A stretch of 29,211 bases of DNA from Oscillospiraceae bacterium (GTDB lineage Bacteria > Bacillota > Clostridia > Oscillospirales > Ruminococcaceae): positions 1 through 29,211 of the forward strand of contig JARBTU010000001.1 of assembly GCA_029240015.1 (NCBI GenBank), read 5' to 3'. Below, piece by piece: positions 10,191 to 29,211 of this stretch (position 1 is the first letter of the stretch; the number at the start of each line of letters is the position of its first letter). A program made the translations under genes and the position numbers. The notes under the pieces are model-generated. The model was not told the DNA's origin, ran no database searches, and worked only from the letters and a program-made list of their open reading frames with translations.

Positions 10191-11255
10191 TTAGTCCCCT
10201 TTCTCGTCGTCTTGTTCAATCATTTGTGACAATGCGTTGCTTATTCCGTTAGAAAAATATTCGATGTATGGAATGATTTTCGCATAGTCAAGCCTTATCG
10301 GACCTATCACGCCAAGCGAACCGACATTCGCATTTCCCATACTGTACTGGGATAGGATGAGACTTGAATTCGTAATCGCAAAATTGTCATTCTCTTTCCC
10401 GAATATAATGTTTATTCCGTCAAAAGCAGAATTCAATAAATTTGCAAGTTCATTTTTGCTGGAAATAAATTTAATAATCTCGCTTGCATCAAAATCTTTA
10501 TAGGTCAAAAGGTTCGTTTCACCTTTGATTCCAACATCTCTGTGAAGAAATTCGCCTGAAAGCTCATACACTGCATACAACAGCGGGGATAATGACATCA
10601 TATAGCTTCCCAGAGCCACCGCAAGGTTTTGGATAAACGCCGGATTGAGGTTTTGTGTTTTGATTCCATAAAGGTTCTTGTTGATAAACTTTGCAAAAAA
10701 GTCCAGCTGTTCATAGTTTAAATCAAATTCAACCCGACATATTTTATTTTTAACTTCTCCCACCGAAGTAATGATAAGAAGCGCATAAAGCCTTCTTCCC
10801 GCCGGGACGACCTCCACCCGAGTGATTACCGAAAATTGAGGCATTGCCGACATGTTAATCGTCGCATATCCTGTCAATTCCGCAAGCGCTTCGGCAGCAC
10901 TCCCAACAACAGCTTCAGCAGTTAGATTTTTTTGCAGCAAAAAACTGTCGATCAACTCTTTCTCTTCTTGAGTCAGCGGCTTTTGAACCATAAGCTTTTC
11001 GATATAAAGGCGATATCCCAAATAAGATGGTACTCTTCCTGCGGAAGTGTGCGGCTGTTCAATGAACCCCAGCTTTTCCAAAAGCGCCATATCATTTCTG
11101 ATGGTAGCACTCGAGACCGTGTCTTTTAACAGGGACGCAACCGCCTTTTATCCAACAGGTTCGCCGGTCTTTATATATTCCTCTATGATTACCGCTAAAA
11201 CCCTCAGCTTTCTGTCGTCAACGTTGAAGGCCTTATCATCTTGAAAGACTTTCAT
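10191..11255 (-). pseudogene. hrcA: Heat-inducible transcription repressor HrcA with an in-frame premature stop
   Basis: The frame from ATG 11255 reads MKVFQDDKAFNVDDRKLRVLAVIIEEYIKTGEPVG*KAVASLLKDTVSSATIRNDMALLE...QPHTSAGRVPS. TAA at 11150-11148 sits where HrcA has the conserved Ser of EPVGS. The remainder (GVIGPIRLDY) is intact. Confidence 0.88.
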
Positions 11256-28204: not shown

Positions 28205-28231
28205 AACAACAAATAAATTATACCATACTAT
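28205..28231 (+). promoter_or_regulatory. Putative mother-cell sporulation (sigma-E/sigma-K-type) promoter
   Basis: AC(28206-7)-N16-CATACTAT(28224-31) fits the sigma-K/E -10 consensus CATAnnnT. It is a short motif in AT-rich DNA. Confidence 0.45.
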
Positions 28232-28289
28232 AGAAGTAATAAAACTTGAAAAACAAGTTCTTAAAATAATACATAAAGGTGTGATAAAA

Positions 28290-29150
28290 TTGGTAATATA
28301 CACAGTAAGACCCGGAGACAGTGTTTATTCCATTGCGCGTAAATACGGCGTTTCTCCTCAGACGATAATTACCAACAACAATATCCAAAATGATCGTCGT
28401 CTTATGGTCGGGCAAGCTTTAATCGTAGATACCGGTGATGTTCGTCATCGCGTGACTGCCGGTCAAACACTTTATTCTTTAGCAAGAATGTATGGCACAA
28501 CTGTGAACAGTATTCTAGCAGCAAACCCAGGGGTTAACCCCGAAAGACTTCAAATTGGGCAAACTCTTGTGATTCCTACCGATCCTCAAGAAAAGCGAAC
28601 CATTGATGTAAATGGGTACGCTTTTCCCAATATCAACAGAGATACGTTAAATCGGACCCTTCCTAATCTTACATACTTAAGCATTTTCAGTTATCAAGTC
28701 AAACCGGACGGAAGCCTCATTCCAATCAACGATACCCCGTTAATCCAATCTGCGCGCCAGAGAGACGTAGCTCCTATGATGGTCATCACCAACATTTTGG
28801 AAGGCGGCAGTTTCAATAGTGACTTAGCCCATACGATTCTAACAAGCGAAAGTGTTCAAGACACCCTGCTTAACAATGTTCTTCAAACATTAAGAACTAA
28901 AAACTATTATGGATTAGACATTGATTTTGAGTTTATTCTTCCTGACGACCGTGAAGAATACAATAACTTTTTAAGAAAAGCTGTCAATAAACTTCGCCCA
29001 CTCGGCTATACCATTACAACCGCGCTTGCCCCAAAATTACGTGGAGATCAGCCTGGGCTTTTGTATGAGGCGCATGACTATCCTGTCCATGGAGAATTGG
29101 TCGATCATGTAATTATCATGACTTATGAATGGGGATATACTTATGTATAA
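28290..29150 (+). CDS. yaaH: YaaH/SleL-type spore cortex-lytic protein (LysM-LysM-GH18), 3'-truncated or interrupted
   Basis: Two LysM repeats (YTVRPGDSVYSIA..., HRVTAGQTLYSLA...), then GH18 TYLSIFSY, GLDIDFE (DxDxE), ALAPK, YEAHDY, MTYEWGYTY, then V-stop. Likely start TTG 28290 (AAGGTG RBS); the track start is GTG 28281. Confidence 0.88.
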   Translation: MVIYTVRPGDSVYSIARKYGVSPQTIITNNNIQNDRRLMVGQALIVDTGDVRHRVTAGQTLYSLARMYGTTVNSILAANPGVNPERLQIGQTLVIPTDPQEKRTIDVNGYAFPNINRDTLNRTLPNLTYLSIFSYQVKPDGSLIPINDTPLIQSARQRDVAPMMVITNILEGGSFNSDLAHTILTSESVQDTLLNNVLQTLRTKNYYGLDIDFEFILPDDREEYNNFLRKAVNKLRPLGYTITTALAPKLRGDQPGLLYEAHDYPVHGELVDHVIIMTYEWGYTYV

Positions 29151-29211
29151 ACATCATATAACCTATGGTCATTACAAACAAAAAGCCCCAAGGAACTTTG
29201 TAACTGCCTTT
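29145..29211. mobile_element. Putative left edge (att junction) of an element inserted in yaaH
   Basis: Family similarity ends abruptly after GYTY. The junction carries TATAC-ttat-GTATA, followed by non-coding AT-rich DNA. No recombinase gene is visible in the window. Confidence 0.4.

Follow-up and report, generated by a model that had tools for sequence, protein, structure and literature searches.

Interruption of the spore gene yaaH/sleL at an insertion hot spot in an uncultured soil bacterium: a candidate skin-like element seen at its left junction

The sporulation genes that appear as interrupted in reviewed lists are sigK, spsM, spoVFB, spoVR, gerE, and yabG, and the examples that have been tested are few. 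The skin element resides in sigK and is served by SpoIVCA in B. subtilis and by CD1231 together with the RDF CD1234 in C. difficile (PMC5025042; bioRxiv 10.1101/2022.02.25.481979). In B. subtilis, SPbeta (SprA-SprB) occupies spsM, and its excision in the mother cell rebuilds this spore surface maturation gene (PMC4191935, PMC5499854). In B. cereus ATCC10987, gerE is interrupted by gin, which is not a prophage and has a serine recombinase; its rearrangement has been shown experimentally (PMC5595907). The prophage-like yin element in yabG of C. botulinum coexists in integrated and circular forms within one culture (PMC10747680). Elements of this kind, which leave mother-cell genes during sporulation, are an established type of programmed genome rearrangement; every characterized case encodes a large serine recombinase of its own, and excision is governed by a recombination directionality factor (RDF) or by expression of the recombinase specifically in sporulation. 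The gene considered here, yaaH, already figures among the known targets of integration: Kohm et al. (bioRxiv 10.1101/2021.11.22.469490) name it with reference to Abe et al. 2013 (Mol Microbiol 90:415), and the yaaH examples listed in that passage of the preprint come from species outside the Subtilis clade.

The stretch of DNA that we analyzed (the window; 29,211 nt) is the entire contig C51 of a soil MAG (G000; 264 contigs, 1.8 Mb, 79% complete) in which Spo0A was found; SpoIVA was not found in this incomplete MAG. Its yaaH gene is broken near the end of the contig, and the locus shares features with each of the systems above. As with skin, a sporulation gene is interrupted, one that B. subtilis expresses in the mother cell; skin has a large serine recombinase (LSR) at one end, and its precise excision restores the open reading frame. 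The LSRs at the yaaH site are only 22-29% identical to one another, and no RDF was found for them. The skin target is a sigma factor gene, whereas the target here is an enzyme gene, and yaaH excision would therefore not gate the sporulation program. The likeness to SPbeta lies in a probable LSR-borne element within a spore gene, and a possible free attP form here would resemble an active prophage; the yaaH elements of relatives include non-phage cassettes as small as 5 kb and reach ≈44 kb. Small elements such as those in yaaH of two relatives (8.6 kb in G009 and 5.2 kb in G181) and in cotJC of G000 (≈4.9 kb) resemble gin, from which they differ in target gene and cargo. The two assembly contexts described below may be comparable to the integrated and circular forms of yin, although the target gene differs. 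The yaaH elements listed by Abe et al., so far as the citing text describes them, share the target gene; their hosts lie outside the Subtilis clade, the host here is an uncultured soil Clostridia-type MAG, and in G000 both yaaH and cotJC are split. The G000 yaaH element would add to a known class; beyond that, what stands out is how widely the hot spot is used and that yaaH and cotJC are both split in one MAG.

The product of the interrupted gene is a LysM-LysM-GH18 spore cortex/coat hydrolase. The features of the 5' piece are as follows.

28206..28232, plus strand: sigma-K-type promoter motif (AC, 16 nt, CATAnnnTA), a consensus match only, 49 nt upstream of the TTG
28275..28281, plus strand: AAAGGTG, ribosome-binding site read from the sequence, 8 nt upstream of the TTG start (28290)
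28290..29150, plus strand: yaaH/sleL 5' piece, 285 yaaH-derived codons followed by GTA and TAA from inserted DNA
28917..28931, plus strand: GH18 catalytic DxDxE motif (DIDFE), intact, from sequence and alignment

The open frame runs from a GTG at 28281 or a TTG at 28290 up to the TAA at 29148-29150. The TTG appears the likelier start, since AAAGGTG lies 8 nt upstream of it and both the homologs and the database entry P0001 begin there. The frame contains GLDIDFE at 28911-28931 and MTYEWGYTY, which ends at 29144, and it closes with GTA TAA at 29145-29150. Pfam places two LysM domains in the 5' piece (E 8e-30), and the GH18 match is limited to profile positions 72-182 of 317. The piece is 70% identical to the full-length homolog P0002 over residues 3-287 and 63-71% identical to proteins named YaaH. 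Full-length homologs have 425-428 aa, and nearly all of the best 120 database relatives listed have 423-432 aa and continue past the break as GPPxAVxP; ≈137 residues (32%) are therefore missing. No frame resumes the protein in the final 61 bp. The preliminary description of this DNA had reported the same broken frame, had estimated that about a third of the enzyme is missing, and had seen no resumption downstream, all of which agrees with these data. It had also read a sigma-E/K-like promoter upstream as fitting mother-cell expression: a sigma-K-type match to the consensus does lie there and may point to mother-cell expression. The pattern AC-N16-CATAnnnTA has two matches on both strands of the 29-kb window against 0.48 expected, one of which precedes yaaH; the other lies at 10320-10346 on the plus strand. 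In B. subtilis, yaaH is expressed in the mother cell under sigma-E.

The DNA of C51 stops 61 bp beyond the break, and two features can be delineated at the junction.

29135..29145, no strand: putative recombination core ATATACTTATG, the last yaaH-matching bases and the first bases common to a second assembly context
29146..29211, no strand: left end of the inserted element (attL P' arm and beyond), non-coding-looking, cut by the contig end

The comparison with an empty-site relative, which the preliminary description had proposed, locates the end of homology to the base. The relative, L054, reads ...TGGGGGTATACTTACGGCCCG, and the window reads ...TGGGGATATACTTATG and then TATAAACATC...; the two match through 29145 apart from two synonymous third-codon sites, and homology ends after that position. 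A short dyad, TATAC..GTATA, flanks the break. The putative core overlaps the proven 9-bp core of the G181 element, TATACTTAT, which occupies the same position as the window break. Precise rejoining is predicted to yield an attB that reads GGGGATATACTTATGG-CC...

As an independent check, we used the Logan k=31 assembly of the source run, a soil metagenome and the sole public run that holds this DNA. One Logan contig (depth 5.7) crosses the junction without mismatch (29134-29164) and ends at 29164. A second, of 535 bp (depth 7.2), starts at 29135 and extends 458 bp past the window, and a third, of 2673 bp (depth 7.6), joins a different left flank to 29135-29164. The assembly graph therefore branches at 29134|29135, and C51 ends exactly 77 nt from 29135 on, as at a k=77 graph vertex. 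Because base 29134 is the second base of an invariant Gly codon, the second left flank is not a yaaH allele. This second context shares 11 yaaH-like bases together with the element end, and the two contexts could possibly represent attL and attP, the latter in an excised circle, a free element, or a tandem copy. What the second context represents is uncertain, since the depths of 5.7, 7.6, and 7.2 are not additive. The tail had no exact-pattern match in the viral, genome, or metagenome contig collections scanned, a BLAST search of 400 genomes of the order with its 66 nt gave chance-level matches only, and the left end resembles no other element that we examined. A look-alike near the start of contig C76 (18/19) lies inside the argH coding sequence and was set aside as chance.

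A GH18 search of the MAG, in which the preliminary description had suggested looking for the missing half, returned one other piece, at the end of C74 (5919-6221, minus strand). Read inwards from the contig end, it encodes the final 101 residues of the protein (WTLPF...NKVI, then a stop), matches Pfam GH18 at positions 253-315, and is 87% identical to the nearest full-length homolog, P0002. The MAG thus holds a single yaaH, its 5' piece on C51 and its 3' piece on C74, neither with internal stops, and the two together have the YaaH/SleL architecture of two N-terminal LysM domains and a GH18 barrel with DxDxE. The intervening ≈37 codons (≈288-324; GPP... to ...PNYGYD) have no tblastn match in the MAG, no MAG contig overlaps the open end of C51 or of C74, and the head of C74 has no second match in the MAG. 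A search of other assemblies for this organism's 3' piece found none, the best other match being 79% identical. The synteny comparison was uninformative: the genes flanking the pieces on C51 and C74 are shared by neither the nearest full-length relative nor ten related loci.

The position of the window break is not random, as two sets of observations attest: unrelated proteins end at this very codon, and in many genomes of the order the cut falls within the same ≈35 bp. The former are the metagenome proteins P0040 and P0046, which are 64-65% identical to the protein of the window; their contigs continue into foreign DNA, as seen in the unrelated metagenome contigs L005 and L006. Among 401 sampled genomes of the order, 155 have a yaaH match, and in 14 of these, G000 included, the gene is cut at query residues ≈282-289, and a same-family genome found in a search of relatives (G009) is a fifteenth split case. 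These cuts fall within the ≈35 bp that code for MTYEWGYTYGPxQ. A 3' piece that starts at residues ≈273-285 was seen in 10 of the 14 split genomes. Both halves lie co-oriented on one contig in G009, G181, G122, G154, and G250; they are 8.6 kb apart in G009 and 5.2 (G181), ≈20, ≈40, and ≈44 kb apart in the other four. The protein database also contains dozens of clusters of 134-155-aa fragments that start with MAV(A/S)P or MTYEWGY, which fit the called 3' pieces of split yaaH genes.

The elements that occupy this site in relatives (5-44 kb) can be described from both ends. Their attL and attR carry direct-repeat cores of 9-14 bp: ACCCGCTCA in G009, the G181 core already given, ATGACTTACGAAT in G122, ATGAATGGGGAT in G154, and CTATACATACGGCC in G387. 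At 8 of the 10 resolved attR junctions (positive in G009, G181, G122, G154, G387, G250, G067, and G178; negative in G405 and G209), the 3' piece is immediately preceded by an LSR gene in the same orientation, which places the recombinase at the attR end of the element. The LSR frames encode 510-580 aa with Resolvase and Recombinase domains and, in most, a zinc ribbon. Recombinases that align to that of G009 by BLASTP are 21-29% identical to it; this low identity, together with the differing element-side arms, indicates that several lineages use one target. On-paper deletion at the core was tried in five cases, and each gave an open frame that reads MTYEWGYTYGPP..AVAP and is 431-506 aa long.

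The same MAG contains a second split gene, cotJC, a Mn-catalase-type spore coat gene interrupted by a ≈4.9-kb LSR element. Its 5' piece (...GTEELAH) lies at the end of C129 (L037:1-4663), beside a convergent gene for a 545-aa LSR, and the 3' piece begins at about position 388 of C256 (L036:1-760). The direct repeat GGCACGGAAGAATTAGCGCAT, of 21 bp, is common to the two junctions, as are inverted element arms, and C129 and C256 join through an 8-nt in-frame overlap. The element is non-phage and carries a PadR-like gene and a gene for a secreted carbohydrate-binding-type protein. The C129 LSR, which we had considered as the recombinase of the yaaH element, belongs to the cotJC element instead. 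C256 has another LSR gene in mid-contig (L036:2036-3535), which follows the 3' piece of cotJC at a distance of 1.3 kb and encodes 499 aa with Resolvase, Recombinase, and zinc ribbon domains; we recognized no split gene next to it.

We consider it likely that an LSR-borne element has integrated into yaaH and that its attL forms the end of the window. In the mechanism that we propose, a mobile element would enter yaaH by site-specific recombination at about ATATACTTATG, within the conserved EWGYTYG codons, and integration would leave the 5' piece on C51 and the 3' piece on C74. The element most likely carries an LSR gene at the end that adjoins the 3' piece, on the upstream side of that piece, and we infer from the relatives that its overall make-up is the same as theirs. 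Precise excision at the core would probably rejoin yaaH. If the element behaves as skin, SPbeta, gin, and yin do, excision would occur during sporulation in the mother cell, which does not pass on its genome. We know of no experimental demonstration of excision for any yaaH element. As a new example of a skin-like gene switch, the locus is a credible but incomplete candidate that consists of the left junction in one genome. The preliminary description had taken the window end for an attL/attR edge of an excisable integrative element. Most of the refuting conditions that it had set could be put to the data, and none went against this reading. The junction, the putative core, the hot spot, and the recombinases and restorable frames of relatives support the part concerning an integrated element, and the body of the G000 element, its recombinase, and its attR were not recovered among the MAG contigs.

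Several other explanations of the break can be weighed against these data. Three do not survive them: an intein would leave the frame open, whereas here it stops; an inversion would reverse one half, whereas the halves are co-oriented in all same-contig relatives; and natural short isoforms, homologs ending at GYTYV as the preliminary description had put it, are themselves genes cut by insertions, with foreign DNA after the truncated homolog. A misjoin, in which the assembler attached the final 61 bp to an intact yaaH from this strain or a different one, would be in keeping with a fragmented MAG of ≈6x depth, with a break only 61 bp from a contig end, and with the many other yaaH homologs in the same soil sample (one Logan record at depth 56). 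Such an artifact, and with it the chimera that the preliminary description had raised, is nevertheless very improbable: the independent k=31 assembly crosses the junction without mismatch and carries the tail further, the break coincides to the base with the proven G181 core, and none of the listed contigs has this organism's yaaH continuing into GGxCCxCC. An IS or other transposon, whose multiple copies would break the contig and whose target-site duplication would account for the shared bases, deserves scarcely more credence. It would explain why C51 terminates at a graph branch after 77 nt of inserted DNA and why the left end occurs in two contexts, as is typical of repeats, and one passage of the literature does speak of "phage or transposon related integrations" in yaaH. 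A multi-copy IS would, however, end several contigs, whereas the 70-nt tail occurs once in the MAG, on no other contig, and in 0 of 400 genomes of the order. Two IS copies would moreover have unrelated flanks, whereas the second context shares 11 yaaH-matching bases, and at the resolved hot-spot junctions we saw no transposase, the neighbor being an LSR in 8 of 10.

A more substantial alternative, which we nonetheless regard as unlikely, accepts the integration and holds that the element no longer excises or never did, so that yaaH is a pseudogene and germination proceeds without it. A yaaH match was found in only 12 of 24 same-family genomes when any match was counted and in 4 of 26 at E≤1e-15; since orthologs were not found in many same-family genomes, yaaH is dispensable in the lineage on this view, and its simple loss would be tolerated. 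The missing recombinase and attR of G000 are also as expected of a dead insertion. The condition of the gene argues otherwise. Both recovered pieces are without stops or frameshifts, and DIDFE is intact; the pieces are 70% and 87% identical to P0002, versus 61-65% for the intact genes of other families; and in every split relative checked the halves are open and rejoin in frame, as for a gene still in use.

A broader reading would join the separate strands, and we offer it tentatively, as its combination of claims is rather doubtful. The second context would be the attP of an excised or free element at about the depth of the integrated form, and the element would be active in situ; the spore envelope enzymes of this organism would need two excisions, of the yaaH and cotJC elements; and the dyad-symmetric EWGYTYGPP codons would have been captured independently, at different crossover points, by at least six serine-recombinase lineages. 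The window's own value is modest, since it contributes the left junction only. The wider significance lies in yaaH/sleL as a frequent target in uncultured Clostridia, with ≈9% of the yaaH-bearing genomes split in the sampled order, in the many unrelated serine recombinases that converge on the same ≈35 bp, and in a single soil bacterium in which both yaaH and cotJC are split in this way. Natural pairs of recombinase and att site on one conserved sequence would be useful for studies of the evolution of site specificity and could supply integrases.

Some further observations concern the elements of relatives. In G239, yaaH is broken exactly at the hot spot between the end of C209 (L028) and the start of C164 (L029), and the two ends, ...GGGGATATAC and ACCTACGGTCC..., fit together into an intact gene, which suggests a mixed population in which some members carry an element and others lack it. 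The junctions in L044 (G405), L045 (G178), L032 (G129), and L043 (G067) have element-side arms that are alike (CACATTYAAGWTAYA-like) beside cores that differ by a few bases, and the four elements look like one yaaH-targeting family. G122 and G236 have another arm in common, AAGTCATTGT, at an ATGAC.TA.GA.T core. The cargo is varied: L005 carries an ABC transporter, and the 8.6-kb G009 element carries an HTH regulator and, at L017:2288-7477, a gene for a 1729-aa GH97/F5_F8 type C/FIVAR surface glycosidase, which is unusual for a skin-like element.
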